Virus record (IMG/VR): IMGVR_UViG_3300046820_000975
Span: 1-64,000 of that record
Strand: one strand, 5' to 3'
Origin: a virus
DNA length: 64,000 bases
Position 1 is the stretch's first letter, and every line of letters starts with the position of its first letter. Below are positions 1 to 44,226 of this stretch, in pieces. The translations under genes and the position numbers were made by a program. Below the pieces are notes generated by a model, which was not told where the DNA came from, searched no databases, and saw only the letters and a list, made by a program, of their open reading frames with translations.

Positions 1-2
1 TC

Positions 3-1208
3 TTTATTACTGGCGATTGTATTATTACACCTGTAGTACTTACAGGTTCTGTAATGACAGGTACCACAGTATTTAACTTTACAGGTACAACAAACATTTC
101 TGATACAACAACTGGTTTTAACTTTACTTGGAGTAATAGTATTATTATTAATACTTTTGGTACAATAACATTTGGAGCTAACTTTAACTTTGGAGGAAGT
201 GCTTTTACATATACTGCAGGTACAGTAGATATGATTACTAATGCATGTTTGTTTCGTGTAAATACTTCATGTACCTGGAACTCAGGGTCTATTATATTTA
301 GTACTTGGCAAATTAGAAATAACCCAACTATTACTTTAACATCAGATGTAATTGCACAAACTGTATTCTTTTCGCATACAGCAACATTTACTGCAACTAT
401 TAATGGTGCTTTTAAAATTTATGTAGGTGATCCTAATGGAAGTGTAGGAAACTTATATCATACAGCAGCAGGTGGTAGTATTGTACAAGGTACAGCAACA
501 ATTGAATTTACTGGTAAAGGTGGTGTTGGATATTGGATGAATTGGTATATATTCTTTGCTCCTGCTACTACAGGATATAGAGTAATGAACTGGAATATTA
601 ATGTAAATATTAATACTGCAGGAACCATATTTGTAATTGATAAAATGAATACTACTAATAACTATTCATATACACTTATGGGTGGAAGTAAAACATTTAC
701 TTATACTGCAGGAAACTTAATTACTAAAACAATAAGTACATTACCTGGTTCACAATTATCATTTAAAGGAGGTACTATACAATTTGCAACTGGTCATACT
801 ATCAATGGTTTAAATAAAATGACTTGGGGTAGAATAATATTAGCGGGTGGTGGATCATTTACAATGGATGAATTTCCATGTGGTAATGCAACTGTAGTAA
901 CTCAAATGACTTCTACTAGTACAACTAACTATACAATTACTTTAACAAGTAATACAAATAAAAATGAACGTATTGCAAACTTTATACGTGTAAAGAACTG
1001 TACACTTGCAAATGCTAATTCAAGACAAGTACTGATTACTCATCCTAAAGGAAACTTAGGTAGTAATGTAGGTTTAAGATTTGGTGATATAATGGGACAT
1101 ACTATTCCTAAAGCTTTAGAAACTAATCAACCTAAATTTAAATCAGGTAAAGAAATTGCTTACGGAGCTATGGGATTGGTGGCTGATCCTAACTTTTCAT
1201 CAATATAA
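3..1208 (+). CDS. Tail fibre/receptor-binding-like structural protein, 5'-truncated by window edge
   Basis: Frame is open from nt 3 through the ATG at 54. T/G/N-rich beta-solenoid-like composition with recurring FTYTAG motifs. Confidence 0.55.
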   Translation, partial: FITGDCIITPVVLTGSVMTGTTVFNFTGTTNISDTTTGFNFTWSNSIIINTFGTITFGANFNFGGSAFTYTAGTVDMITNACLFRVNTSCTWNSGSIIFSTWQIRNNPTITLTSDVIAQTVFFSHTATFTATINGAFKIYVGDPNGSVGNLYHTAAGGSIVQGTATIEFTGKGGVGYWMNWYIFFAPATTGYRVMNWNINVNINTAGTIFVIDKMNTTNNYSYTLMGGSKTFTYTAGNLITKTISTLPGSQLSFKGGTIQFATGHTINGLNKMTWGRIILAGGGSFTMDEFPCGNATVVTQMTSTSTTNYTITLTSNTNKNERIANFIRVKNCTLANANSRQVLITHPKGNLGSNVGLRFGDIMGHTIPKALETNQPKFKSGKEIAYGAMGLVADPNFSSI

Positions 1209-1220
1209 ACTATAAACAAA

Positions 1221-1364
1221 ATGGCAAAAGCTAAATCAACCAGTTCAACAGCAAACTTTCTAAAGAAGGTTCCTAAAACTCGCAAGTGGCAAGGTGCTAA
1301 AAAGCATTCTAAAAACAAAGCGTCAAAAAGTTATAAGAAACCTTACAGAGGACAAGGACGATAA
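1221..1364 (+). CDS. Small very basic protein, 47 aa (MAKAKST...SYKKPYRGQGR), not in ORF track
   Basis: Manual translation. A-rich leader before the ATG; terminator directly after the stop. Confidence 0.75.
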   Translation: MAKAKSTSSTANFLKKVPKTRKWQGAKKHSKNKASKSYKKPYRGQGR

Positions 1365-1390
1365 AGGGGAGGGTTTAACTCCCCTTTTTT
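1363..1390. terminator. Intrinsic terminator between convergent genes, probably bidirectional
   Basis: AAGGGGAG-N7-CTCCCCTT stem followed by a T tract. Confidence 0.8.
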
Positions 1391-1391
1391 A

Positions 1392-1784
1392 TTACCATCC
1401 CAAATCTAAACTAGTGTCTTTGTTTAACTTTAAATATTCTTCTTTAACTTCTTCTTCATTGCAGAATTGTATATGGTCCAATAACTCAACAACACTAACG
1501 TTGCAATCACAACGTGTTCCATTTTCATTGATACCAATTACAAGTGCATTTCCAAATATGATATTGTCAGAAAAGAAATCTGATTTAAATCCACCTTTAA
1601 GATTATCAACTGATTCAAACTCAGCTGTAGCATCACACAAGAATGCATTGTTCTCTTTTAAGTTTTCTGGTTTAATCAAATCCATGTAGCTACAATCAAC
1701 AATGTCATAGACATCTTGCAGTGTATTACCTACTTCTATTTCCTCCAAGCACTTGGATTTTACGTCAATAAGGATTGCTTTCAT
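1392..1784 (-). CDS. Hypothetical protein (DUF3846-like)
   Basis: MKAILID...IFGNALVIGINENG pattern typical of this phage family; recognised from memory. Confidence 0.5.
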   Translation of the reverse strand: MKAILIDVKSKCLEEIEVGNTLQDVYDIVDCSYMDLIKPENLKENNAFLCDATAEFESVDNLKGGFKSDFFSDNIIFGNALVIGINENGTRCDCNVSVVELLDHIQFCNEEEVKEEYLKLNKDTSLDLGW

Positions 1785-1793
1785 AATTCTAAT

Positions 1794-2423
1794 TTAAGGA
1801 CCAAAGTAATGAAACCCTGTATTGATTTCTTCATCATTACCTTCTTTCATGTTATAACACATGGTAGCTAATGTTGAGTTTATACTTTTTGATTTGTCCT
1901 CTTTCTTGATAAAATATTTTGATGTTTGAAGATACTTATAATCTTGAGAAACTTCAAACGCTTCTACATATTTTTTAGTAGCTGTCAACACATCATCCCA
2001 GGTGTACTCTGGGTATTCTTTGAAGAACCATTTAAATCTATCAAACAAATCTTTTGGATTAGTTCTGAAACTTATACTGGCTCCATCTTTCTTTCCTTTA
2101 GGAAAGATTTCATTGTACTCTTGAATCTTTGTTTCCCATTCTGAGAATGGAACTTCACTCTTCTTTACTGGTTTCATCTTGGCAACTATGTTAGTTGATT
2201 CTCTCAAGAGATGCAAACCTTTATCAGTAATTTTATAAATAGTATTATAAGTTGTACTTTCAGATTTAACTTCTACAAGATAACCACTTAAACTTAAACG
2301 ATACTGTTCATGTTTAAAGTTTACATAGTTAGGATACATGTAACCATTATGAGTGGCATGAAGGATGAATAACCCATTTGGCGTTACACCTTCTCTCACT
2401 AAATAATCATATAGATCTTTCAT
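1794..2423 (-). CDS. Putative replication-associated protein with wHTH-like N-terminus; likely start MKDLYDY at 2423
   Basis: YKITDKG wing-like motif and a C-terminal YLQTSKYFI motif. The longer start overlaps nrdJ. Confidence 0.4.
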   Translation of the reverse strand: MKDLYDYLVREGVTPNGLFILHATHNGYMYPNYVNFKHEQYRLSLSGYLVEVKSESTTYNTIYKITDKGLHLLRESTNIVAKMKPVKKSEVPFSEWETKIQEYNEIFPKGKKDGASISFRTNPKDLFDRFKWFFKEYPEYTWDDVLTATKKYVEAFEVSQDYKYLQTSKYFIKKEDKSKSINSTLATMCYNMKEGNDEEINTGFHYFGP

Positions 2424-2491
2424 AACAGTTTTCTTTAAGTGGTAATATAAGGGACAAAACAACCACGATTTGCCCCTTATATGACACATTA

Positions 2492-4423
2492 TTAACGTAC
2501 TGGACAAACTCCTCCTTCGCAGTCAGAGATATCCATATCCTCAAGCTTGATGTTAGAACTCTTATCAATAGATACAATTGTTTTAGTTCCTTGAACTAAT
2601 TCATCATACTTCTCTTTAGAGATTTCTTCCAATGGTGCTTGAATAAAACCATGCTCGCTGTGTAATAAAAACGATACAGATTTAACATTGATAAAGTTAA
2701 CTTTCAACCATTCAATGATTTCAGATAACTCGTTCTTTCTGTAGTAAATAGTAACAGACACAGCGTTGTCTGACCATTCTTTTTGTAAACGTTTGATAAC
2801 TTCTAACTGATCAACAGCAGACATATCATTTGCAAGTTTAGTTCCGTCTGGAACTTTACAAGGGAATGATACAACAACTGTGTTATGATCAGCAGTACCA
2901 TCAAAGTTTTTAACATACTCCACATGATAACCGTGTTCCTGACACACTGTTACAATAGGACTGTTAGATGCCATACGTATACGACGTATGTAGTGTTGTG
3001 CATAAGCAGGATGTGCACCAGAAGTAACACCAGCTAACAAACTTAAAGTACCTGAAGGTTTAACTGTTGTCAACTTAATTGAGCGATGAAAACCACATTT
3101 TGCAGAATAGTAATTATCATACTCACGTAAAGCTTCATATGCAGCACTTAACCAAGAACGTTGTTCTGGAGTTGCTTGCAAGTAACCAGTTACACCAATA
3201 CCCATACGCATGTTCTTGTGTACGATATCTTCAGTTTCTTTAATTGCACACTTGATTGCTAATGAATGTTTGTTGATGCGGTACAACAAACGCGTCACTT
3301 TCAACAACTCAGCGTAAGACGTAATGTTTGGTAAGTAAACTTCAGCAAGACAACATGTTTCAAAGTTTGCTAAAGATTGTTCTGCACAAGGATTGAATCC
3401 CATTACATCTGGATCTGGATATTGTATTTCATCAGTACGCCCCATACGACGGGAAGCTTCTAAGTTGATGATACCATAAGGTTCACCATTACCTTTGTAA
3501 CCTTCCCAAAACTCTTCTGGTAACGTTGTAATGTCATCACATACCACAGAGTTGTTACTCATTGCTCTCCAGTTAGGTATTGATACTAAGTCCCAACGTT
3601 TTGCACGTAAGAATTCAATATCATCACTATCACCAATTGCAATTTGTGCTGAGCGTCTAACATTACCTGCAACTACAATCATACCAATGATGTTCATGAT
3701 ATCTAAACAATCAATTGGACGTAAACGCTTGCCACTGCGTAAGTTAAGTACATTTACAATCTGACCAATACCCCATACTAAATCTTCTGGTCCTGATGCA
3801 ACTCCGCCAAAACCTTTGATTGGACTTCCTTTTGATCTGATTAAATGTGTAGCAAATGTAAACCCTGTACCAGTTACAAATGATGCTTCCAATACACGAC
3901 GTAACAATTCTACCCAACCTTCGCGGGAGTCAGGTACAATAAAATCAGCATCGTTTTTGTCAGATCTTGTAATCTGAACTTTAGCTTTTACCTTTGGAAT
4001 CTGATACACATGCTCACGCTGAATGTTGAATCCAACACCAGCACCTAACATAAGTAACTCAAACGCCCAGGTAAAAGGTCTGATAGGTTCATCTACCACT
4101 GTAAACGCACAGTTCTGAAGAGAAGGTAAACCTAATCTTTCTACAGTGTCTGTACCTAATTGCCACAAAAATCTACCTGCTACGGTACCTTTAAGTGACA
4201 ACATCATTTCACGCACATCATCCTCTTCTGCTGGGGTGAACCCAACACCAAGCTGCGTTCTGCACGCATTTAGCACGCGTTCAATGGTTTCTGACCATTC
4301 TTCTGTTCTGTCTCCGTGAGTTCTAGCATAGGTACGCTTGTAAGTTACATAACCTACTGGTCCCCAAGGAGTTACGATTGATTCAGGGTTTGTTTCTGAA
4401 TTAGTTGTTTCTAAATCTGACAT
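2492..4423 (-). CDS. nrdJ: Class II (adenosylcobalamin-dependent) ribonucleoside-triphosphate reductase
   Basis: YKRTYAR, LQNCAF, VAGNVRRSA, NPCAEQ, TTVKPSGTLSLL and C-terminal CEGGVCPVR motifs. Confidence 0.93.
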   Translation of the reverse strand: MSDLETTNSETNPESIVTPWGPVGYVTYKRTYARTHGDRTEEWSETIERVLNACRTQLGVGFTPAEEDDVREMMLSLKGTVAGRFLWQLGTDTVERLGLPSLQNCAFTVVDEPIRPFTWAFELLMLGAGVGFNIQREHVYQIPKVKAKVQITRSDKNDADFIVPDSREGWVELLRRVLEASFVTGTGFTFATHLIRSKGSPIKGFGGVASGPEDLVWGIGQIVNVLNLRSGKRLRPIDCLDIMNIIGMIVVAGNVRRSAQIAIGDSDDIEFLRAKRWDLVSIPNWRAMSNNSVVCDDITTLPEEFWEGYKGNGEPYGIINLEASRRMGRTDEIQYPDPDVMGFNPCAEQSLANFETCCLAEVYLPNITSYAELLKVTRLLYRINKHSLAIKCAIKETEDIVHKNMRMGIGVTGYLQATPEQRSWLSAAYEALREYDNYYSAKCGFHRSIKLTTVKPSGTLSLLAGVTSGAHPAYAQHYIRRIRMASNSPIVTVCQEHGYHVEYVKNFDGTADHNTVVVSFPCKVPDGTKLANDMSAVDQLEVIKRLQKEWSDNAVSVTIYYRKNELSEIIEWLKVNFINVKSVSFLLHSEHGFIQAPLEEISKEKYDELVQGTKTIVSIDKSSNIKLEDMDISDCEGGVCPVR

Positions 4424-4455
4424 GGTTAAAGTGTTTTAAAATTGAAAAAGGGTTG

Positions 4456-4485
4456 CAAATATACCACAGTTTTTCAAGGTTGCAA
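4456..4485 (-). promoter_or_regulatory. Bacteroidota sigma70-type promoter for nrdJ
   Basis: Minus strand TTG-N19-TATATTTG, about 30 nt upstream of the ATG. Confidence 0.65.
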
Positions 4486-4591
4486 CTCTCAACCTCAAAA
4501 AAATCTTATTATTAACTAAGTAAGTTTTCGTATCTTATTGTGTAAGGATAATTATGGAGCGTGGAGCACTCAATAATCTATAATTACAGGA

Positions 4592-5005
4592 ATGAAATAC
4601 ACTTTATTCTTAAAAACCAAATTCTGGTTACTTGCTGGGATGTCAATTCTTTTACCTATAAAAGGATTGATGTTTACTATTGGTTTTCTTGTGGGTGTTG
4701 ACATGATTGTTGGCATCTGGAAAGCACTCAAGTTAAACCAACGCATTCGTTCTCGTAGAATGAGTGACACTATTACTAAACTATTATTGTATCAAGTAGC
4801 AATTATATCTGGGTTTTTGATTCAGAAATATGTGCTTGTTGATACAATTCCAATTGCCAAACTTATAGGTACTGTTATTGCAATCATTGAGTTCAAGAGT
4901 ATTCTTGAAAGCATAGAAGCAGTCACGGGACAAGATGTATGGACAAAGATTAAAAAGATAATTGGTCGCAAGAGCGATGATGCTCGCGACATAATGGGTA
5001 GCTAA
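4592..5005 (+). CDS. Holin (phage holin family 4-like)
   Basis: Multiple TM segments, DMIVGIWKA and IEFKSILESIE motifs; first gene of the lysis cassette. Confidence 0.75.
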   Translation: MKYTLFLKTKFWLLAGMSILLPIKGLMFTIGFLVGVDMIVGIWKALKLNQRIRSRRMSDTITKLLLYQVAIISGFLIQKYVLVDTIPIAKLIGTVIAIIEFKSILESIEAVTGQDVWTKIKKIIGRKSDDARDIMGS

Positions 5006-5006
5006 T

Positions 5007-5630
5007 ATGATTTCACAAACCAAATTTTTCAGTATTATTATTGGGATTCTGATTGCTATTATTGTAGCACAGAGAGTATTTACTCCAACCCCAGAGTGTC
5101 CTCAAACTATTGAGCTTAGAGTTGACACAGTTTATAACACAGTTTCTAAGACTTTTACAAAGACTGTAAAGCTTGCTGGTAAAGATACCACATATCACGT
5201 AGTGGATACTATGTATTTAGTTGACACAAATTGTGAGGTAACTAAATCAAGATTTTTAAAGCTTGTTAAACAACACGTTACACGTAACATTTACAAAGAC
5301 ACACTTACTATTGATAGCATTGGTCATGTATATATCATTGATACTGTACAGTTTAACAAATTAGAACATAGAAAGTATACTTATAAATATAGCATTCCTA
5401 CAGTAACGATTACTAAAATCATACCTCCTGCGCGTGTGCGTCAACTATATGTTGGTGGTGGTATTGATGGTACCTATATTAACAAGACAGTAAATATTAC
5501 TGCTGCAAAAGCAGGTGTTTTATACAAAACCAAAAAAGACCAACTTTATGGAGCAACAGTAGGTGTATCTACAACTGGGTACTTAACCTATGGGTTGCAA
5601 TCTTACTGGAAAATAAAACTTAAAAAATAA
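5007..5630 (+). CDS. Membrane-anchored lysis-cassette protein (spanin candidate)
   Basis: N-terminal TM, repeated DT(V/T/M)Y motifs, C-terminal amphipathic beta strands. Confidence 0.5.
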   Translation: MISQTKFFSIIIGILIAIIVAQRVFTPTPECPQTIELRVDTVYNTVSKTFTKTVKLAGKDTTYHVVDTMYLVDTNCEVTKSRFLKLVKQHVTRNIYKDTLTIDSIGHVYIIDTVQFNKLEHRKYTYKYSIPTVTITKIIPPARVRQLYVGGGIDGTYINKTVNITAAKAGVLYKTKKDQLYGATVGVSTTGYLTYGLQSYWKIKLKK

Positions 5631-5635
5631 TAAAA

Positions 5636-5932
5636 ATGTTACTTACAACTGCCACATCTGCTGTACCATCTTTTGGTGTATTTGAAACCCTAACTCAATA
5701 TGGAGCTTTAGGTGTTATTACTTTAGGTCTTGGAGCTGCTCTTTGGTTTTTGTTAAAAAGACAGATTGCTTCTGAAGACAAACTCAAATCTGAAGTAGCT
5801 GAGCTACGTAAAGAGATGAATGAGTATATGCGTAAAGATCAAGGTGCAATGAAAGATGCTATTGAAAACAACACGCGTGCTTTGAATCAGATCCAGATTA
5901 TGATTATGCAACCTAAAAAAACTTCTAAATAA
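5636..5932 (+). CDS. Membrane protein with coiled coil (holin/antiholin-like)
   Basis: LTQYGALGVITLGLGAALWFLL TM segment followed by a heptad-like region. Confidence 0.5.
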   Translation: MLLTTATSAVPSFGVFETLTQYGALGVITLGLGAALWFLLKRQIASEDKLKSEVAELRKEMNEYMRKDQGAMKDAIENNTRALNQIQIMIMQPKKTSK

Positions 5933-6399
5933 TGAAAAAGTCATACACACTTTTGTACATACTGGTATTCTTATTGGTATCAGTTGTTGGTGTGACTATT
6001 TACGTTAGTGGTAAAAGTCATATTGATGCTGTAAATACTGCTGTAAAACTTGATAGTGCTAATGTAGCATTACAAGAACAAGTTATTGTAGTAAGTAAAA
6101 CTTATTCATCTAAGATGTCTAAATTAGATTCTGTAATTGCAAAGAAAGACTCTACAATTAAAGTTCAAAAAGGAAGCATCTTCAGTTTGATTGGACAAGT
6201 GGCAAAGCAAATGTTTGTAAAAACATCCTCTGTATTTGTTCATGATACAGTATTCATTACTGAAAAGAAGAACTTCTGGGGACGCACAAAAACATCTGTA
6301 GCAAAAACTGAGACTTTAGTTGACTCTAGCTCATCAACTATAGTACAAGAACCAATATTAATGGGATCAATGGTAGCTCCAGTTGATTCAACAAAATAA
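5932..6399 (+). CDS. N-terminally anchored coiled-coil protein (i-spanin-like)
   Basis: N-terminal TM, predicted helical periplasmic part, position in the lysis cassette. Confidence 0.45.
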   Translation: MKKSYTLLYILVFLLVSVVGVTIYVSGKSHIDAVNTAVKLDSANVALQEQVIVVSKTYSSKMSKLDSVIAKKDSTIKVQKGSIFSLIGQVAKQMFVKTSSVFVHDTVFITEKKNFWGRTKTSVAKTETLVDSSSSTIVQEPILMGSMVAPVDSTK

Positions 6400-6404
6400 T
6401 AATT

Positions 6405-6635
6405 ATGAAACAGTTATTCATTGACGAAACTGGTAAACTCTCTATGAAAAGAGTTTGCGGTTTACTATGTACAGTAGCACTTTGTGTTACTATGTATCAC
6501 AACTCGTTCTCACATGAAGATCAAAAACCTTCAGATATCTTAGTAGAATCTGTAGCTGCCTTAGCATTTGGTTGCTTAGGTTTATCTTCTATTGATAAAA
6601 TCTTTGGTAAAAAAGAAACTAAAACAAAAGAGTAA
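6405..6635 (+). CDS. Small two-TM holin-like protein
   Basis: GKLSMKRV motif, two hydrophobic segments, translationally coupled to the endolysin. Confidence 0.55.
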   Translation: MKQLFIDETGKLSMKRVCGLLCTVALCVTMYHNSFSHEDQKPSDILVESVAALAFGCLGLSSIDKIFGKKETKTKE

Positions 6636-7108
6636 TGCAATTATCTACACACTTATCATTAGCTGAGGTTACGTATTCTGAAACTGCAAAACGTGCAGGA
6701 GTATCTAACGAACCTACACCTGCTCATCTAGAAGCAATGAAAAAACTTGCTGAGCATATTTTTGAACCTATTAGAACTCACTTTGAAAAACCTATCAAAG
6801 TGTCTTCAGGTTACCGTTCTGCTGCATTGAATGCTATTACTCCAGGATCTTCTGCTACTTCACAACATTGTAAAGGTGAAGCTTTAGATTTGGATCAAGA
6901 CGGAATGCCTACAGGTGTTACTAACAAAATGGTATTTGATTATATCAAAGGTAACTTAAACTTTGATCAATTAATTTGGGAATATGGTACTGATAGTAAC
7001 CCTGATTGGGTGCATGTATCTTATTCTGCATCTGGTACTCAACGTAAAATGGTACTCAGGTGTAAAAGAGACAGTGCTGGAAAGCCAGTCTACACACCTT
7101 ACAAATAG
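6635..7108 (+). CDS. Endolysin, peptidase M15 family
   Basis: SSGYRS, SQHCKGEALD, FDQLIWE and WVHVSY zinc-peptidase motifs. Confidence 0.88.
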   Translation: MQLSTHLSLAEVTYSETAKRAGVSNEPTPAHLEAMKKLAEHIFEPIRTHFEKPIKVSSGYRSAALNAITPGSSATSQHCKGEALDLDQDGMPTGVTNKMVFDYIKGNLNFDQLIWEYGTDSNPDWVHVSYSASGTQRKMVLRCKRDSAGKPVYTPYK

Positions 7109-7137
7109 AAATAACCCCCTAATTAAAGGGGGTTTTT
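7109..7137. terminator. Intrinsic terminator between convergent operons
   Basis: AACCCCCT-N6-AGGGGGTT stem with T tract. Confidence 0.8.
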
Positions 7138-7140
7138 CAT

Positions 7141-7716
7141 TTAATCTAATGCTGGAAGAGTAAAGTCAATTACTTCTGATTCATCAATAGCGTAGTCAAT
7201 ACACATAGCAACAACCTTGTTGTACTTCTCTGCTACGTATAACTTGTATGAACCATCTCCAAAACCTGAATGACTAACAACACCTTCAGGGTATGTTTCA
7301 ACACCTGCTTGTTTGGTCCATATAAGTGAGCACATTCTTCTGTACCACTTCTCACCTTCAGTATTGTTTTCTCCAAACAGTTTAAGACATTCTGAAATTT
7401 CACTTAACAAGATAGGATCTGTAGTGATTTCAGCGTTATCATTTCTGTATGTTTCTTCTGAAAAGATACCACACTGGCCAGAGTCAACACCTAATACTCC
7501 TTTGTATTCTTTCCAGGTAAGTTTACTCTTTGCGTAGTCTTCATGAACTGCAAACAGCATTGAATTACGTTTATCTTCACCATCATAAAAGTCTAACTTT
7601 TTAGGGTAGATGTTGTAAACGCCAGGTTTGACATTTAATTTGATTTGACACCATGTACCTTTTTTATAACATGGGTCTGAAACAATAACTGTTTCTTTTA
7701 ATTTGATTTGTTGCAT
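7141..7716 (-). CDS. DUF4241-like protein
   Basis: VSDPCY, GVDSGQCG and SGFGDGSY motifs. Confidence 0.65.
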   Translation of the reverse strand: MQQIKLKETVIVSDPCYKKGTWCQIKLNVKPGVYNIYPKKLDFYDGEDKRNSMLFAVHEDYAKSKLTWKEYKGVLGVDSGQCGIFSEETYRNDNAEITTDPILLSEISECLKLFGENNTEGEKWYRRMCSLIWTKQAGVETYPEGVVSHSGFGDGSYKLYVAEKYNKVVAMCIDYAIDESEVIDFTLPALD

Positions 7717-7717
7717 A

Positions 7718-8473
7718 TTAGTAGTTAATTAGTGGTAAAATCTTCTCACGCACTTGAGCTGCTAAGTACTTGACATCTTTTGTATTATCGATATAAACGT
7801 CAAAGTCATAACCTTTATCAAGCGCTGTTTCAGATATGTGAGTATTATCTGGCATCATAGGTCTTGTAATGCGTACAAGTAATCCTTTCTTAGCTCTGAT
7901 TGCATTAAATTCATTTGGAAATCTTACATCAGTAATAATTTGTTTCTTATCAGTGCTGTAACCTGCAAGCAATGCGTTAACCCACGCGTTTGGATGTAAA
8001 TGATTTCTGATGGCATCAGTTCCTATTTCTTGCAAAAACTGACGTACAGTCATTTGTTTCTCAATAGGTTCATATTCCATATCAAATTCACCATACATAG
8101 GTTTTAATACATGCTCTATAGATTCTTCAGCTGATTCTTTTGTCAAATGTCTACCAGTGTGTAACATAATCTTACCTTCTGACATCACTGCAATTTCCCA
8201 GTAATTCCATTCAGGACCTAAGTTTGTTAACTTAAAGTCTTGATCTTCAAACTTTTGTATAGGGATTCCAGTTAATAAAGCTGCACACTCTTTTAATTTG
8301 CCAGCAAACTTTTTAATCTGATATCCTTCACTAAAAGGATAACCAGCATCAATAATAATCTTTACTTGCACATCAGTAAGTTTATCATGATCAGTCATGA
8401 TCTGAATAATCTTGGCAAGTAAATCCTTACCATGACCAATCTTACCAGAGATTCCAATCAAACTTGTTTTCAT
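7718..8473 (-). CDS. Deoxynucleoside monophosphate kinase
   Basis: GISGKIGHGKD P-loop, KKFAGKLK, RQFLQEIGTD, ITDVRFPNE, HISETALD. Confidence 0.88.
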   Translation of the reverse strand: MKTSLIGISGKIGHGKDLLAKIIQIMTDHDKLTDVQVKIIIDAGYPFSEGYQIKKFAGKLKECAALLTGIPIQKFEDQDFKLTNLGPEWNYWEIAVMSEGKIMLHTGRHLTKESAEESIEHVLKPMYGEFDMEYEPIEKQMTVRQFLQEIGTDAIRNHLHPNAWVNALLAGYSTDKKQIITDVRFPNEFNAIRAKKGLLVRITRPMMPDNTHISETALDKGYDFDVYIDNTKDVKYLAAQVREKILPLINY

Positions 8474-8625
8474 TAGCGTATACTTTTAAATCTGTCTAGT
8501 AATACTGTACGATCCAATTTGATACGATACTTGATACGCAAATATCGCATGACCAAAAAGAACTTATTGGTCTTTGTGTTTCTTTTAGAAACCTTTTCAA
8601 TTGTTGTTTTGATTAAATCTTTCAT
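8473..8625 (-). CDS. Small basic hypothetical protein, 50 aa, not in ORF track
   Basis: Manual translation MKDLIKTT...DRFKSIR. The stop overlaps the next ATG. Confidence 0.6.
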   Translation of the reverse strand: MKDLIKTTIEKVSKRNTKTNKFFLVMRYLRIKYRIKLDRTVLLDRFKSIR

Positions 8626-8678
8626 AAGGATTAATTTATAAGTCTGCCACAAAGTTAATTATGGCAGACTTACATTAA

Positions 8679-9536
8679 TTAGAATGGTAAACCCTCAACT
8701 TTTATATGAGTTTCAGGTGTTTCTGCAGTAAGACTAGGTTCTTCTGCTGTACTAAACTTAGGTTTTGCTGCATCACTTATTTTTCCATCAAGCAAATTAA
8801 CAAAAGTAGGACGCAACGTTCTTAAGAATGTTTCAAAGAAATAACGTGGATGTACGTATTCCATATACATTTTATTGTAAATAGCATACAGTTTACCAAT
8901 TGTAATTTGTTCAGGATTCTTAAACAAAGTCGCATACTCTTTACTCAAATAAGTTGCTTGCACACTTGTAATTTTTGATTTCTCAAAAAAGTATTCATTG
9001 AAAATAGCATAAGCATCTTGCTTGGTTGCTTTTAATGTTTCGTCATTTAATTTATTTGCAAAAGCATATATCTTTTCAAATTCAACATGTGCGTTTAATC
9101 CAGCAATATGCTCTGCAAATTTTTCAGGTTTTGTAACAGCATACAATGAACTAAAAAAATTTGTAGTACTCAATGTACGTGGAAAAATCAACGTATTGTT
9201 TAACGGATTGCGTAATGCAAGTATTGCTTCAAATTTACTACGTTTGCAGTTTTTGTTACTAACAATAACAGTTGGTTGATAATATCCAGTTTCAGGAAAT
9301 GCATCACTGGGATTCATTGTAGCAAAGCTAGCAATTAGCACCATGTATTCACCTTTACTGTCTGCCATAATTGATTCTTCTGTAACAACACAGTTTTTAG
9401 ATTCAATAGCTTTTCTAATTAATTCGTAAACCAATTTGTTAGATGGTGCCCACCATTTCAATTCTTCCAATTTACTTATTGGATCTATTGTTACTATTTT
9501 ATTTAGTGCTTCTGAATTCTTTAAAGTTGTTTTCAT
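8679..9536 (-). CDS. Hypothetical protein downstream of DNA polymerase
   Basis: Long ORF co-oriented and tightly packed with neighbours. Confidence 0.6.
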   Translation of the reverse strand: MKTTLKNSEALNKIVTIDPISKLEELKWWAPSNKLVYELIRKAIESKNCVVTEESIMADSKGEYMVLIASFATMNPSDAFPETGYYQPTVIVSNKNCKRSKFEAILALRNPLNNTLIFPRTLSTTNFFSSLYAVTKPEKFAEHIAGLNAHVEFEKIYAFANKLNDETLKATKQDAYAIFNEYFFEKSKITSVQATYLSKEYATLFKNPEQITIGKLYAIYNKMYMEYVHPRYFFETFLRTLRPTFVNLLDGKISDAAKPKFSTAEEPSLTAETPETHIKVEGLPF

Positions 9537-37600: not shown

Positions 37601-38092
37601 TTAAGATGGTAAGTTAGCAGCTTTACGTGCAGCTAAGAACTCACGCACCTCAGCGGTGTTGTCATTCTGTACTTTAACGTCAGCAGTAGTACCTGTCTCA
37701 TCATAGAAAGAGTATCTGATGATACGCTCTCCACCATAAGTAAGTTCCATGCCATCATTACCTGCACGTTTTACGTACGATTTGATAGCATCTTCCCACG
37801 TCATTGCTTTGTCATTGTGGATGACATTAACAATATGGTCAGGAACTTCAGATTCTAAATACTCTTGAACGCAAATACGTCCTGGCATAGTACCATACTT
37901 GGCGTCTTTAATTAACCCTTGAAGGTCAGACACTTTACCGCGTATTAAACAACTCTTCTCCTTTACAGAGATGAAGCCATTGTTAATACTACGTACGCTT
38001 TCAGACAAGCGAATGTAACCATACTCAGGGTTACTGTCATAAGCTGTGAACATTGCACCAGCTTTGTTAGGCATAATTCTTACATTAGACAT
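37601..38092 (-). CDS. Early protein, 163 aa, paralogue of 38383..38877; likely start MSNVRI
   Basis: Shared SNPE(Y/F), GFI, PGxIxVxE, GxRIxR and terminal ANLPS motifs; cassette motif about 28 nt upstream. Confidence 0.75.
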   Translation of the reverse strand: MSNVRIMPNKAGAMFTAYDSNPEYGYIRLSESVRSINNGFISVKEKSCLIRGKVSDLQGLIKDAKYGTMPGRICVQEYLESEVPDHIVNVIHNDKAMTWEDAIKSYVKRAGNDGMELTYGGERIIRYSFYDETGTTADVKVQNDNTAEVREFLAARKAANLPS

Positions 38093-38382
38093 AAGGTGTA
38101 AATTTAGATTAGATTGGTTGGGTGTTTGGAATGGGGTTGTGAATGGGGGTAGTGGGTGGGATGGTAGTGGGTTTGTGTACATGGTTTTGATTTGGTCTTG
38201 ATTCCTTGCGGGGTACAGTTCTGATTATCCATGAGAGTTTGACTGGGTACACTATTGCTGTAACCCTTTCTGAGTATTTGGGGTGGTTGGAATGGGATAG
38301 TGAATTGGTGTACCCTGTTTTGTGGACAGGGTTGTGGACAAGGTGTAGAGCGTAGCATTTCTACTACGCTCACTGTCCTTGT

Positions 38383-39491: not shown

Positions 39492-40043
39492 TTAGTGGTT
39501 CTCAGGAACAGGTGGTAACTCAGATACCCAATTCAAATACTGACTGCCTTTAATCCATTCATTGTTTTCTTTTGCATTGCGTGTGTTAGACTCAATGTCT
39601 TTGAGTTTCTCACAAGTTGTAGTCATGTAAGACGGTACAAGTCTGTCTTCAAAGAAATCAGTTGGCGTTTCAGTTTCTGTTGCATAAGTATCGTCTGTGA
39701 AATACTTACGTGATGTCTTTACTGACATGTAACTGATGACAACCTTATTAGTAATAGGGTTGTAAGATTCAATGTTACCGTCAATCAAATGAGTTTCAAC
39801 GCGTTCATCTTTCTTACTACGATACATAGCAAATACAGTTTGATTGATAGGCATCTGGTTGATGCTTTCATCATTAATACAGAACAGCATATCAAGGAGC
39901 GTGTTTACTTGGTCATTGCTGAATTCTGAATTTAACGCTTCAATGATTACAGGCATGTTTCTTGCAAACAAAATTGAGTTGTTTGTAATAGCATTGTGAC
40001 CTGCCTTGATGATTAGTTCTTGTTGTTTTTTTGAGAGTTCCAT
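39492..40043 (-). CDS. Early hypothetical protein
   Basis: Preceded by the cassette motif at 40080. Confidence 0.65.
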   Translation of the reverse strand: MELSKKQQELIIKAGHNAITNNSILFARNMPVIIEALNSEFSNDQVNTLLDMLFCINDESINQMPINQTVFAMYRSKKDERVETHLIDGNIESYNPITNKVVISYMSVKTSRKYFTDDTYATETETPTDFFEDRLVPSYMTTTCEKLKDIESNTRNAKENNEWIKGSQYLNWVSELPPVPENH

Positions 40044-40102
40044 GATTAGTGGGGTTTATAGTTAATAATTAGTTTAAAAGGGTGTTTGGGTTATTAAACC
40101 CC

Positions 40103-40351
40103 CTATATCATTTCTGGTATAGGGAGTTTAACAAACATTTTCTTACCTGACGCGCTTACTTTAAACTTGCGAAAGGTGTTTACAAATACGCCAGTATTGT
40201 CTATGTGCGTAAATTGTTTCATAGCACGTAGATGGTTGATGGCACCTATTCTTGTAGGGAATGTTTTGGTGCTATCAATGGAGAAACTTATTTCTCCTAA
40301 CTCATTAAAGAACTGCGTAGTGTAGTTCAGTTGGAATAAAGTCTTTTGCAT
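40103..40351 (-). CDS. Early hypothetical protein
   Basis: Preceded by the cassette motif at 40375. Confidence 0.6.
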   Translation of the reverse strand: MQKTLFQLNYTTQFFNELGEISFSIDSTKTFPTRIGAINHLRAMKQFTHIDNTGVFVNTFRKFKVSASGKKMFVKLPIPEMI

Positions 40352-40394
40352 ATGGTTTATATTTAGTTATCAAAGGGTGTTTGGAAATGAATAG

Positions 40395-40869
40395 TCAATC
40401 GTTTTGATCACATGTGGCAGCAGGTGGTTTGGTACTGATGCGTGGTTTTGATATCGAGTTTTGATATCAGTGCACACGTTGAGTTAATCCATTCACTTCA
40501 CTGTTGGCTATGGTCTTACAACCAACAGTGATTTGAATTTCAAGCATTACTACAGCGCCTATCTGTAGTACAAGTTCCCAGCTGGACACTTATATCCCTT
40601 TCGGGGGACTGACCCTACACTGCTGTAAGGTGACTGTACTGTTGACTGCTCATCCTGACCAGGACTTCCTTGTAGTTTTTACATATTCACTCCCAACAGC
40701 GAGTAATATAACTCAACCTATAAAGGTTAAGAGAAGCAACAACACATCAAATGCTTATAATGTGTTATTGCTAAAAATAACTGTAACAGACACTTTCAGT
40801 CTGAAGCTCCCGCACTCTTTGTAGAGGTCTAGGGCGCATTTGCAATACCTTTACAGGATTACAGTTATG
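40395..40869 (-). ncRNA. Putative ~470 nt structured non-coding RNA
   Basis: Follows the cassette motif at 40881 but has no minus-strand ORF in the track; at least eight identifiable helices. Confidence 0.55.
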
Positions 40870-40909
40870 TTAGTTTATTTGGGTGTTTGGAAATGACTAG
40901 AAAAAAAGG

Positions 40910-40936
40910 TGAGCAGTTTATTCACGTGCTCAGGTG
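40910..40936 (-). other. Putative H-type RNA pseudoknot, copy A
   Basis: CAC-CTGAGCAC-GTG-AATAAAC-TGCTCA. Confidence 0.6.
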
Positions 40937-40942
40937 TAGCAG

Positions 40943-41299
40943 TTAACATTCAGGAGATTGATTCTCCAATGCGTTGAGTTCACACTCATTTTTTAAATCT
41001 TCCATGTGACTGTACCAAGGAACATATGTTATAACATTGCGAGGAATATCAATGAATCCTGTACCTGCTACCATGTGGTGTACTCTTTGGTCATCAAGGT
41101 TAATAATGACATCTCCTACACATGTGCTTCTTTTATCAAGGAGAGCATACTCTTCTGAGAAATCATTTTGTGCTAACTTAAATGCGTCTTCCAGCGAGTT
41201 AGCTTCAAGAGAATGTATAAGGTCATACTTATATACACCGCTTTTCATCTCATGGTTTATTGCACCAGTTGATGGGTGAAAAATAAGAAATGTTTTCAT
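40943..41299 (-). CDS. YodL-like domain protein, 118 aa; likely start MKTFLIF
   Basis: LEDAFKLAQN...RSTCVGDVI...VAGTGF resembles the YodL-type RSLSVGDVV motif. Confidence 0.5.
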   Translation of the reverse strand: MKTFLIFHPSTGAINHEMKSGVYKYDLIHSLEANSLEDAFKLAQNDFSEEYALLDKRSTCVGDVIINLDDQRVHHMVAGTGFIDIPRNVITYVPWYSHMEDLKNECELNALENQSPEC

Positions 41300-41337
41300 G
41301 TTACAATTGTTTTTGTTGGTTATTAAATGATTGAAAA

Positions 41338-41365
41338 TGAGCAGTTTAGTGTCATGCTCAGGACA
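41338..41365 (-). other. Putative H-type RNA pseudoknot, copy B
   Basis: TGTC-CTGAGCAT-GACA-CTAAAC-TGCTCA. Confidence 0.6.
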
Positions 41366-41370
41366 GTTCT

Positions 41371-41493
41371 TTAGTGTATTGGACCACAAGTTTGGTGGTA
41401 TACACGCCATTGCTTACAGTTGTGCGACTCAGTAGCACAAGAAGCGAACAATACTATGCTTAAAAGCACGATGATGTAGAAAGAGAATTTCAT
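41371..41493 (-). CDS. Small lipoprotein, 40 aa
   Basis: MKFSFYIIVLLSIVLFAS-C signal II/lipobox; cassette motif 30 nt upstream. Confidence 0.65.
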   Translation of the reverse strand: MKFSFYIIVLLSIVLFASCATESHNCKQWRVYHQTCGPIH

Positions 41494-42120: not shown

Positions 42121-42429
42121 AATAAAGTTGGTTTAATTAGTTAGTAAGGGTGTTTGGTACACTAATACATTGTACAAGCTCTGGCTGTGTGTAGTCTACA
42201 CATACAAGAGTGCTGTGCGGGTGGCTGCGTGCGTGGCGTGGGTGGGTGTGCTGTCCTCTGTGTGTGTTGTTGTTCTTCCTCAGAGAGATGTCAGTGTTTT
42301 ACCTAATACACAAGTGTGCTGTGGCAAAAGCATGGGGGTACCCATGGCGCTGCGTGAGGGCGGGGAGTTGTTGCATAGTAGGTACCCACACTTTCATCCT
42401 CATTGCAAATTGCACCCCTTAGTACCCAT

Positions 42430-42465
42430 AAAAAGAAACCCCCGCACTTATTAGGTGGGGGGTCT
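42430..42465 (-). terminator. Intrinsic terminator of the phoH operon
   Basis: Minus strand ACCCCCCACC-TAATAA-GTGCGGGGGT followed by TTCTTTTT. Confidence 0.65.
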
Positions 42466-42494
42466 GTCTATACTGACTAAGTATAGGGGGGATC

Positions 42495-43356: not shown

Positions 43357-43432
43357 AATGTGGAGGTCTACACTTCTAAGATAGGGAAACATTTGAATAG
43401 TTGTATTCTTTTCAATTATTTATCTAAATAAA

Positions 43433-43464
43433 TTTGCAAAAGTTAAACTTGTGAAGTATATTTG
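43433..43464 (+). promoter_or_regulatory. Canonical Bacteroidota sigma70 promoter heading the plus-strand arm
   Basis: TTTG-N20-TATATTTG. Confidence 0.75.
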
Positions 43465-43503
43465 TAGTGTAACAACTTTTAAAGTTTAAAAATCAATACA
43501 ACA

Positions 43504-44069: not shown

Positions 44070-44140
44070 AGCGGGATGGTGTAGTGGTAGCATGCAAGCC
44101 TCATAAGCTAGAGATCTAGGTTCAATTCCTAGTCCCGCAA
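44070..44140 (+). tRNA. tRNA-Met (anticodon CAT), atypical
   Basis: Cloverleaf with GCGGGA/TCCCGC acceptor, CTCATAA anticodon loop and CTAGG-TTCAATT-CCTAG T arm; no encoded CCA. Confidence 0.88.
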
Positions 44141-44226
44141 CTAAAAAACCTGCATGTTGTTTTTGGTGGAAACAACAACCAGTCTTGCGCTGGGCAGGTG
44201 AAAATAACTTAATAATGAAAACCAAC

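Follow-up and report, generated by a model that had tools for sequence, protein, structure and literature searches.

A stretch of phage DNA at positions 40395-40869 is a real, unusual cassette without an open reading frame (ORF): it consists of a chain of strong stem-loops, like those closing the neighbouring cassettes, without a demonstrable integrated fold. The cassette is composite and apparently dispensable, and no relatives of it were found. It is located on the minus strand of a window of 64,000 nt, corresponding to bases 1-64000 of a 111,924-nt IMG/VR virus record (completeness estimate 89%), which, judging from its genes, belongs to an uncultured freshwater crAss-like phage. A first-pass annotation of the letters had proposed that the payload of this cassette is a single structured non-coding RNA of ~470 nt. 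The reading favoured here, to which about an even chance is given, is that of a presumably transcribed, non-coding hairpin cassette, lacking a specific integrated fold.

Motif array and absence of a gene

The region follows a common cassette plan: a motif, CCAAACACCC-N7-CTAA, is followed by a short A-rich leader, a small ORFan gene and one or two very stable stem-loops. Nine copies of the motif, plus two variants with one mismatch, are found between 38120 and 42157, all on the minus strand; no copy is present elsewhere in the 112 kb genome. In eight cases, the coding cassettes, an ATG is found 23-36 nt after the CCAAACACCC word. Several motif copies come directly after the hairpin, or the hairpin and T-run, closing the preceding gene. 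From this position only, the motif is presumed to be an early promoter or a 5'-end signal. A scan for sigma-70-type hexamer pairs found none that coincides with a motif copy, and a T-run accompanies only some of the hairpins. Among the papers listed by a literature search, the motif word was met only in primer sequences of no relevance; a motif scan of IMG/VR gave mostly single chance matches. In phages with a related large terminase subunit (TerL relatives, up to 78% amino acid (aa) identity), equivalent places, behind terminators, are occupied by a C/A-rich motif that has diverged (CCTAAACCCCC type); these phages differ in which small genes lie between motif copies.

The motif copy described at 40870-40896 by the first-pass annotation is present on the minus strand (40896-40870). 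Nowhere else in the 111,924-nt genome are ORFs of at least 60 aa separated by a gap as large as the one behind it, 40352-40942. No minus-strand frame in the gap reaches 41 aa: the longest are 40 and 35 aa, when started by GTG, and 26, 24 and 22 aa, when started by ATG. No credible frame appears when the gap is read with TAG as Q or TGA as W. None of the assemblies in the protein collection has a gene called in the gap, and a plus-strand frame of 64 aa has no relative in the same collection. The claim that no credible minus-strand ORF follows the motif is therefore correct for frames of at least 41 aa, but had overlooked a 22-codon ATG ORF (40839-40771). This ORF may have been left over from a gene, or may occur by chance; a search reading through stops found no longer protein sharing its 22-aa N-terminus. 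A pseudogene was rejected as an explanation of the gap: six-frame tblastn found no match at E<=1, either in the fetched loci or in the remainder of the genome.

Folding of the stretch

The ability of the stretch to fold was evaluated by comparison with shuffled sequences. As minus-strand RNA, 40395-40869 folds with -153.4 kcal/mol (z-score, z, -5.95), while -140.1 kcal/mol (z -3.90) is obtained for the plus strand; G-U pairs extend stems on the minus strand only. The preference for the minus strand, anticipated by the first-pass annotation, is thus borne out. When 25 shuffles were used, the stretch scored z -6.8, compared to values from -0.7 to -4.5 for 13 control windows of equal length and strand.

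When the signal is analyzed by parts, it turns out to be concentrated in simple hairpins, indicated as H2, H3/H4, H6 and H5 in Table 1. Hairpins of this kind also close the neighbouring protein cassettes, where they score between z -4.9 and -6.8 against dinucleotide shuffles. The stretch contains six or seven of them, compared to one or two at other cassette ends. Hairpins reaching 14 bp or more number seven in the genome: the gap contains two of them, and another lies 260 nt downstream, where an 82-aa gene ends. In the part of the genome dominated by minus-strand genes (below ~43.4 kb), a count of hairpins of at least 11 bp, G-U pairs being tolerated, gives 21 for minus-strand RNA against 3 for plus-strand RNA, a bias arguing that such hairpins act in RNA. 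A scan for intrinsic terminators gave a loose match only at H3 (40731-40712), with a count at shuffle level, and no U-tract terminator is present in the 3' tail (40395-40480).

The individual helices listed by the first-pass annotation do exist. The helix ATAACTGTAA/TTACAGTTAT is present, with arms at 40859-40871 and 40774-40786, and an inverted-repeat search recovers both AGCAATAACACAT/ATGTGTTGTTGCT and TCACTGTTGG/CCAACAGTGA. CAGAC/GTCTG, CCTTACA/TGTAGG, the CCC-GAAA-GGG hairpin and TACTACAG/CTGTAGTA are all part of minimum free energy (MFE) folds. Their assembly into larger domains is a different matter. For the first proposed multibranch domain (40774-40872) the closing stem is present, but the domain is weak, with a better score on the opposite strand; the second (40565-40678) does no better than shuffles (see Table 1). 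Only simple hairpins beat shuffles, and the idea of one integrated fold of ~470 nt, with two multibranch domains, is not supported.

Strain variation

Related strains were compared by using contigs of at least 80% likeness from four public runs (X3, X5, X7 and X8). In X8, which comes from a different study, the sequence is identical to the window. In a 3.9-kb contig of X7, position 40374 is directly joined to 40881: 506 nt (40375-40880) are absent, with 12 letters fitting either side. Both end points fall in copies of a 20-nt direct repeat, that is, of the motif. Since X7 lacks exactly this unit, the cassette is a presence/absence polymorphism, and the 506-nt unit appears to be dispensable to the phage. 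The term "cassette", as used by the first-pass annotation, thus holds in a literal sense: two motif repeats bound a unit, and one strain is without precisely that unit.

The same annotation had treated the stretch as a single unit, which is not in agreement with the contigs of other strains, broken at 40772/40776. A 1.6-kb contig of X5 matches 40014-40772 and 40776-41130: between the two matches 493 other letters are found, and 3 are skipped. A contig of X3 features the same break, with a loose end behind 40772. The 30 adjoining letters on the minus strand, CCAAAAACCC-TTAAGAA-CTA plus A40772, form a further motif copy with canonical spacing. Because this copy adjoins 40772, the portion from 40771 to 40395 (part B) is, in X5 and X3, the payload of a cassette of its own. 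The window form is, judging from these junctions, a deletion fusion of two cassettes, made of part B and of part A, the 5' portion of the cassette before it (including the 22-codon ORF stub); it arose by a deletion of ~490 nt, joining part B to part A. The X5 and X3 strains have retained part A, which is located there beyond the 493 inserted letters. Further loose ends are found in other strains at 40542, 40761 and 40943.

Part B occurs in at least three strain contexts: in the window, behind its own motif in X5 and X3, and in a third X3 contig. In the latter, as read from the loose ends, four positions are changed in the 5' arm of H2, the arm of the variant covered by the comparison; three of the changes would maintain pairing with the 3' arm of the window. 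The three compatible changes, C to U twice and U to C once, are all opposite G, and their number is estimated not to be significant (p about 0.3). Two other changes may be placed in part B: one, at 40721, falls in the loop of H3, the other, a one-base insertion of X3 behind 40655, in a bulge of the MFE fold.

Table 1. Features of the hairpin cassette and of its immediate surroundings. Positions are those of the window; z, folding score relative to shuffled sequences.
Feature	Position	Strand	Remarks
Motif copy TCATTTCCAAACACCC-N7-CTAA, heading the hairpin cassette	40870..40896	-	27 nt; presumed early promoter or 5'-end signal
Right 20-nt direct repeat, bounding the 506-nt unit	40881..40900		repeat pair 95% identical, spacing 506
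Left 20-nt direct repeat, motif copy of the next cassette (82-aa gene)	40375..40394		from repeat analysis and strain contig
Part A ("domain 1"): closing stem of 10-13 bp, small inner hairpins	40774..40872	-	z -2.5 minus, -3.3 plus; 5' portion of first cassette
22-codon ATG ORF MRPRPLQRVRELQTESVCYSYF	40771..40839	-	41 nt behind motif; gene remnant or chance
Fusion point	40773..40775		in other strains, 493 other letters ending CCAAAAACCC-TTAAGAA-CTA, then A40772
H2: 15 bp, two G-U pairs, 8-nt loop; first element of part B	40735..40772	-	z -6.12; 0 of 200 shuffles as good
H3 (8 bp, loop UUAU) and H4 (6 bp)	40684..40731	-	z -4.16
"Domain 2": proposed multibranch fold, including the CCC-GAAA-GGG hairpin	40565..40678	-	z -0.57; 57 of 200 shuffles as good
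H5: 8 bp, TACTACAG/CTGTAGTA	40543..40570	-	z -2.33
H6: 14 bp, two G-U pairs	40491..40538	-	z -5.0; only 10 bp on plus strand
3' tail: 7-bp hairpin of two GATATCAAAAC direct repeats, then C/A-rich run into next motif	40395..40480	-	z -2.6
118-aa ORFan gene, upstream of the hairpin cassette	40943..41299	-	followed by hairpin and T-run just before motif
82-aa ORFan gene, downstream, with its own motif copy	40103..40351	-	eight strain variants, 96% identity
17-bp hairpin closing the 82-aa gene	40091..40134	-	z -4.9; longest hairpin of the genome

Search for homologues

Blastn and nhmmer searches against 136 loci (80 from TerL-related IMG/VR records, 56 matched by motif) revealed no homologue of the stretch. 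A covariance model of 40480-40775, named R1, matched only itself among 48 sources (0.8 Mb), and thus none of 47 other loci. Exact-pattern scans of IMG/VR, using words from hairpins and loops and from the loose ends of the strains, gave no match; in a JGI metagenome scan, the five matches to an 18-mer of the GAAA hairpin were all unrelated. The syntenic interval of the TerL relatives does not contain the hairpin cassette.

Membership in a known RNA family was also rejected. A cmscan-type comparison with Rfam, bearing on the catalytic role considered among others by the first-pass annotation, pointed to no family, including ribozymes, group I and II introns, tmRNA and GOLLD, ROOL and HEARO RNAs. 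At gathering threshold, the sole Rfam match in the whole window is a tRNA at 44070-44140; at E<=10, Rfam 15 yields for 40000-41300 only chance matches to microRNAs and snoRNAs, far below gathering scores. A tmRNA, a candidate prompted by the crAss-like phage phi14:2, was discarded as well: ARAGORN finds none in the window, while the positive controls in phi14:2 and in L048 were found. L048, a TerL relative with 68% aa identity, carries a predicted tmRNA at 5986-6414 on the plus strand, adjoining tRNA genes. The window phage itself has only a tRNA-Met (44070-44141); in L008 and L025 ARAGORN reports, at 6890-6965 in both, a tRNA with an irregular anticodon loop (a two-base 'ct'), where other relatives have tRNA-Met.

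Favoured and alternative explanations

According to the favoured explanation, the 506-nt unit 40375-40880 would be one exchangeable cassette of a hyperplastic early region, laid out as a motif, no gene, the 5' part of one cassette (40776-40869, with the 22-codon ORF stub) and the hairpin payload of a second one. A polymerase starting at the motif would transcribe the stretch early and in the sense direction and, because the stretch lacks a hairpin with a U-tract acting as terminator, transcription would continue through to the 82-aa gene. It would yield a non-coding RNA, or a long leader, shaped as a string of independent stable hairpins rather than as one compact fold. Such hairpins would be of the same kind as those closing the protein cassettes, where RNA 3' ends are probably formed or protected. 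Recombination between copies of the repeated 20-nt motif would lead to gain and loss of the cassette, as for the PeSL cassettes of T4-type phages. The anatomy of the cassette, its surplus of hairpins, the bias towards one strand, the presence/absence polymorphism, the composite make-up and the lack of homologues are directly observed; the promoter function of the motif, the transcription of the stretch and any role of its RNA are what we infer from this arrangement.

A number of points weigh against the explanation. The coding regions of the genome already average a z of about -2, and the predicted structure is based on the thermodynamics of one sequence, for which no homologue was found. No RNA run is present among the sequencing runs listed as holding the DNA of the stretch. 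In phi14:2, no upstream motif shared by the early transcripts was found (bioRxiv 10.1101/2020.03.07.982082). Part A may belong to a protein gene, given the 493-nt insert found in other strains, and the ORFs of 22, 26 and 40 aa might be translated into micro-proteins.

A dedicated, selected structured RNA, whose hairpins and junctions form one functional molecule (a regulator, a decoy against a host defence or nuclease, or a ribozyme), is the alternative surviving best, although it is considered unlikely. It would account for the strong folding on the sense strand, with G-U pairs working on the minus strand only, and for the recurrence of part B in different strain contexts. The few changes located in part B are in line with it, two being found in a loop (40721) and in a bulge (40655) and three out of four in the 5' arm of H2 being compatible with pairing, although not significantly so. 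Early non-coding RNAs are abundant in phi14:2, and relatives contain other ORF-free stretches with extreme folding. One of these, L028 60-717 on the minus strand (658 nt, identical in L030), scores z -10 and forms very long helices; it is located downstream of duplicated early genes of 163 aa, and matches none of the other fetched loci. Yet the multibranch domains, which would make one molecule of the hairpins, are not above chance, and the hairpins resemble ordinary cassette-end ones. The supposed molecule is a fusion generated by deletion from two cassettes, missing from one strain, and neither an Rfam family or ribozyme nor a homologue turned up in the 136 loci, in the 47 loci searched by covariance model or in the IMG/VR and JGI scans.

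On present evidence the stretch is not a conserved RNA family, and may be recombination debris. If so, it would be a functionless scar of deletion and recombination in a region of fast turnover, composed of a leftover leader, an ORF stub and orphaned cassette-end hairpins. This possibility is also judged improbable, and ranked behind the previous one. Its composite origin, the exact absence in X7 and the break points of other strains (40542, 40761, 40772, 40943) are as expected for debris, and conservation is limited to the strain level. The 22-codon stub begins about where the start of a gene is expected, at 41 nt from the motif compared to 23-36 nt in coding cassettes, and the hairpins are of the type found at cassette ends. 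Phage genomes are compact, yet debris would have to make up the largest gap in 112 kb; moreover, the number of hairpins exceeds that of other cassette ends, six-frame tblastn shows no trace of a decayed gene, and the form of the window recurs unchanged in a second study (X8).

It is very improbable that the payload consists of micro-proteins, encoded by the 22-aa ORF at 40839-40771 and by an ORF of 26-40 aa at 40589/40547-40467. The first of them starts at a distance from the motif close to that of coding cassettes, but inside the predicted stem-closed fold of part A, at variance with the open, A-rich leaders found elsewhere. The other ORFs are either started by GTG or contained within hairpin arms, and all together cover less than one third of the stretch. 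The ORFs looked up are not recorded in the protein collection and have no relative there, a result which is weak for those started by GTG. Finally, a DNA-level element (a replication origin, protein-binding palindromes or iterons) is the least credible explanation: inverted repeats, the repeated word CTGTTGG/CCAACAG, the GATATCAAAAC direct repeat and a change in the sign of GC-skew near 38 kb, rather than at the strand switch near 43.5 kb, might suggest it, but G-U pairs extend the stems only on the transcribed strand, the unit lies behind a motif, in the same orientation as genes, and cannot be an essential origin, because it is absent from X7.

Neighbouring genes and genomic setting

The terminase, portal and major head protein of the window phage match PHROGs. 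When its TerL was compared by tblastn to cultured or named phages, all the matches listed were crAss-like, and nearly all by organism tally, with an identity of ~26%; they are phages of Bacteroides, Flavobacterium and Cellulophaga. Freshwater is the origin of all the metagenome runs holding most of this DNA, and of the majority of those holding a part of it. Minus-strand genes span from ~7 kb to 43.4 kb, while structural genes diverge on the plus strand; the hairpin cassette lies within the initial 5 kb of the minus-strand block, and is surrounded by small ORFan genes without match in Pfam or PHROGs. The early cassettes are C-rich on their own coding strand, a feature not shared by other minus-strand genes, and the GC-skew sign flips ~5 kb before the switch in coding strand. 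A 45-nt element (43425-43469), located in the intergenic space from which phoH and the plus-strand genes diverge, maintains 86-91% identity across many TerL relatives, despite diverged flanks, and is probably a shared control region.

For the proteins adjacent to the hairpin cassette, the protein collection contains clusters of 8 and 10 variants; a JGI metagenome scan found no relative of the 82-aa one. The 82-aa gene ends within the hairpin at 40091-40134, which takes in its last codons and directly adjoins the following motif copy. Upstream, the ORF at 40943-41410 (155 aa) is called as 118 aa by JGI/IMG (start at 41299); other assemblies give it 101, 142 or 155 aa. This ORF is not headed by a motif copy and closely follows the preceding small ORF, with which it probably forms one cassette.

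A 193-aa ORF is called at 37601-38182, within which a motif copy is found (38129-38120). Because of this copy, the ORF probably starts at the ATG at 38091, resulting in 163 aa, as in its paralogue and in the copies of relatives. Upstream of it, a variant of the motif, CCAACCACCC (38290-38281), heads ~150 nt of non-coding, C/A-rich sequence, which is not structured (z +0.9) and is preceded by two strong hairpins (38281-38382, z -6.5). A second ORF-free stretch, also C/A-rich, lies on the minus strand at 42160-42494, between the terminator behind a 77-aa gene (the gene after phoH) and the first motif copy. It folds at shuffle level (z -0.09), and is weakly similar to a non-coding stretch of ~330 nt, which is conserved in the same place in the relatives L002, L003, L004, L008 and L024 (nhmmer E 0.04-7.5); the similarity is recognisable in the alignment.

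Downstream of the window, the record contains a run of giant proteins, including one of 4442 aa (89893-103221). It features a DFDVD motif at residue 2728 and, at its C-terminus, a DprA-like match (phrog_768, E 3.4e-10), while no sequence match is found in PDB, which holds the structure of the phi14:2 polymerase (6VR4, according to the phi14:2 paper). The protein is a candidate fusion of the crAss-type virion RNA polymerase.

Comparison with known systems

CrAss-like phages are among the most abundant phages known, and their early regions are almost entirely unexplained. The locus described here is a natural experiment, as one phage population comprises strains carrying the hairpin cassette, strains lacking it and strains in which a longer form, of two cassettes, is present, all delimited by a short repeated motif. 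It makes it possible to test the motif as an early promoter signal of the crAss-type virion polymerase, and to establish whether cassettes without ORFs act at all. Early stretches of this kind, free of ORFs and rich in hairpins, may be common in the crAss-like group and poorly conserved in sequence. A wider conjecture, which is regarded as unlikely, is that crAss-like phages shuffle promoter-equipped "RNA ORFans" just as they do ORFan genes. These would be strain-specific cassettes, with a string of very stable hairpins as their sole product, made immediately after infection and acting as decoys or sponges; the stretch, its z -10 counterpart in L028 and the early RNAs of phi14:2 would then be one functional class without sequence conservation. 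Were this true, the target could be a host nuclease, a defence sensing double-stranded RNA or hairpins, or an RNA-binding factor.

A close comparison is with phi14:2, where two long early intergenic regions (g004-g005 and g005-g006) are transcribed above most genes (bioRxiv 10.1101/2020.03.07.982082), their non-coding RNAs being present from the earliest time point and persisting through infection (Drobysheva et al., bioRxiv 10.1101/2020.03.07.982082). In both crAss-like phages a long ORF-free stretch lies among small early genes, on their sense strand. The two differ in several respects: no similarity in sequence or structure is detected between the stretch and positions 1-9000 of NC_021806 by blastn, nhmmer or the covariance model R1; a strict motif heads every cassette here, whereas none is common to the early transcripts there. 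In addition, one phi14:2 region holds a tmRNA, detected by both ARAGORN and Rfam, and the stretch holds none. This tmRNA is contained in the g005-g006 region (NC_021806 4031-4502, plus strand), with GSSVQKLAMVA as the tag peptide given by ARAGORN; it matches RF00023 with 46 bits (gathering score 47) and E 2.6e-16, and is not annotated as a feature in bases 1-9000 of the RefSeq record.

In T4-type phages, PeSL (promoter-early stem-loop) units, composed of a stem-loop and an early promoter, are located on either side of ORFans and bring about their modular shuffling (Arbiol et al. 2010, PMC2839356; Comeau et al. 2014, PMC4122927). Here too, a repeated stem-loop and a promoter-like motif flank small ORFans in a hyperplastic early region, the motif occurring nine times within 4 kb. 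Another common trait is that close strains differ by insertions, deletions and replacements: in our case, an exact deletion is observed between two copies of the 20-nt motif, and the insert of X5 and X3 ends in a motif. PeSL promoters, however, are sigma-70-like and were tested, and their stem-loops are proven terminators, while the motif described here resembles no sigma-70 hexamer consensus, and both roles are putative. The phage lineage is unrelated, and PeSL cassettes carry ORFs, whereas the hairpin cassette carries none.

As a hairpin-rich RNA candidate of several hundred nucleotides, the stretch may be compared to GOLLD, ROOL and HEARO, some of which are phage-encoded. Those families, in contrast, are conserved across many genomes and have multi-domain folds supported by covariation, while the stretch has no homologues found and its multibranch parts are not above chance.

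In T7-like phages, RNase III sites and stabilising hairpins between early cistrons define and protect mRNA ends. The hairpins of the crAss-like phage are likewise stable structures located between early cistrons, but feature perfect stems of 14-17 bp, where T7 sites are bulged, and in the hairpin cassette they form a chain without a cistron.

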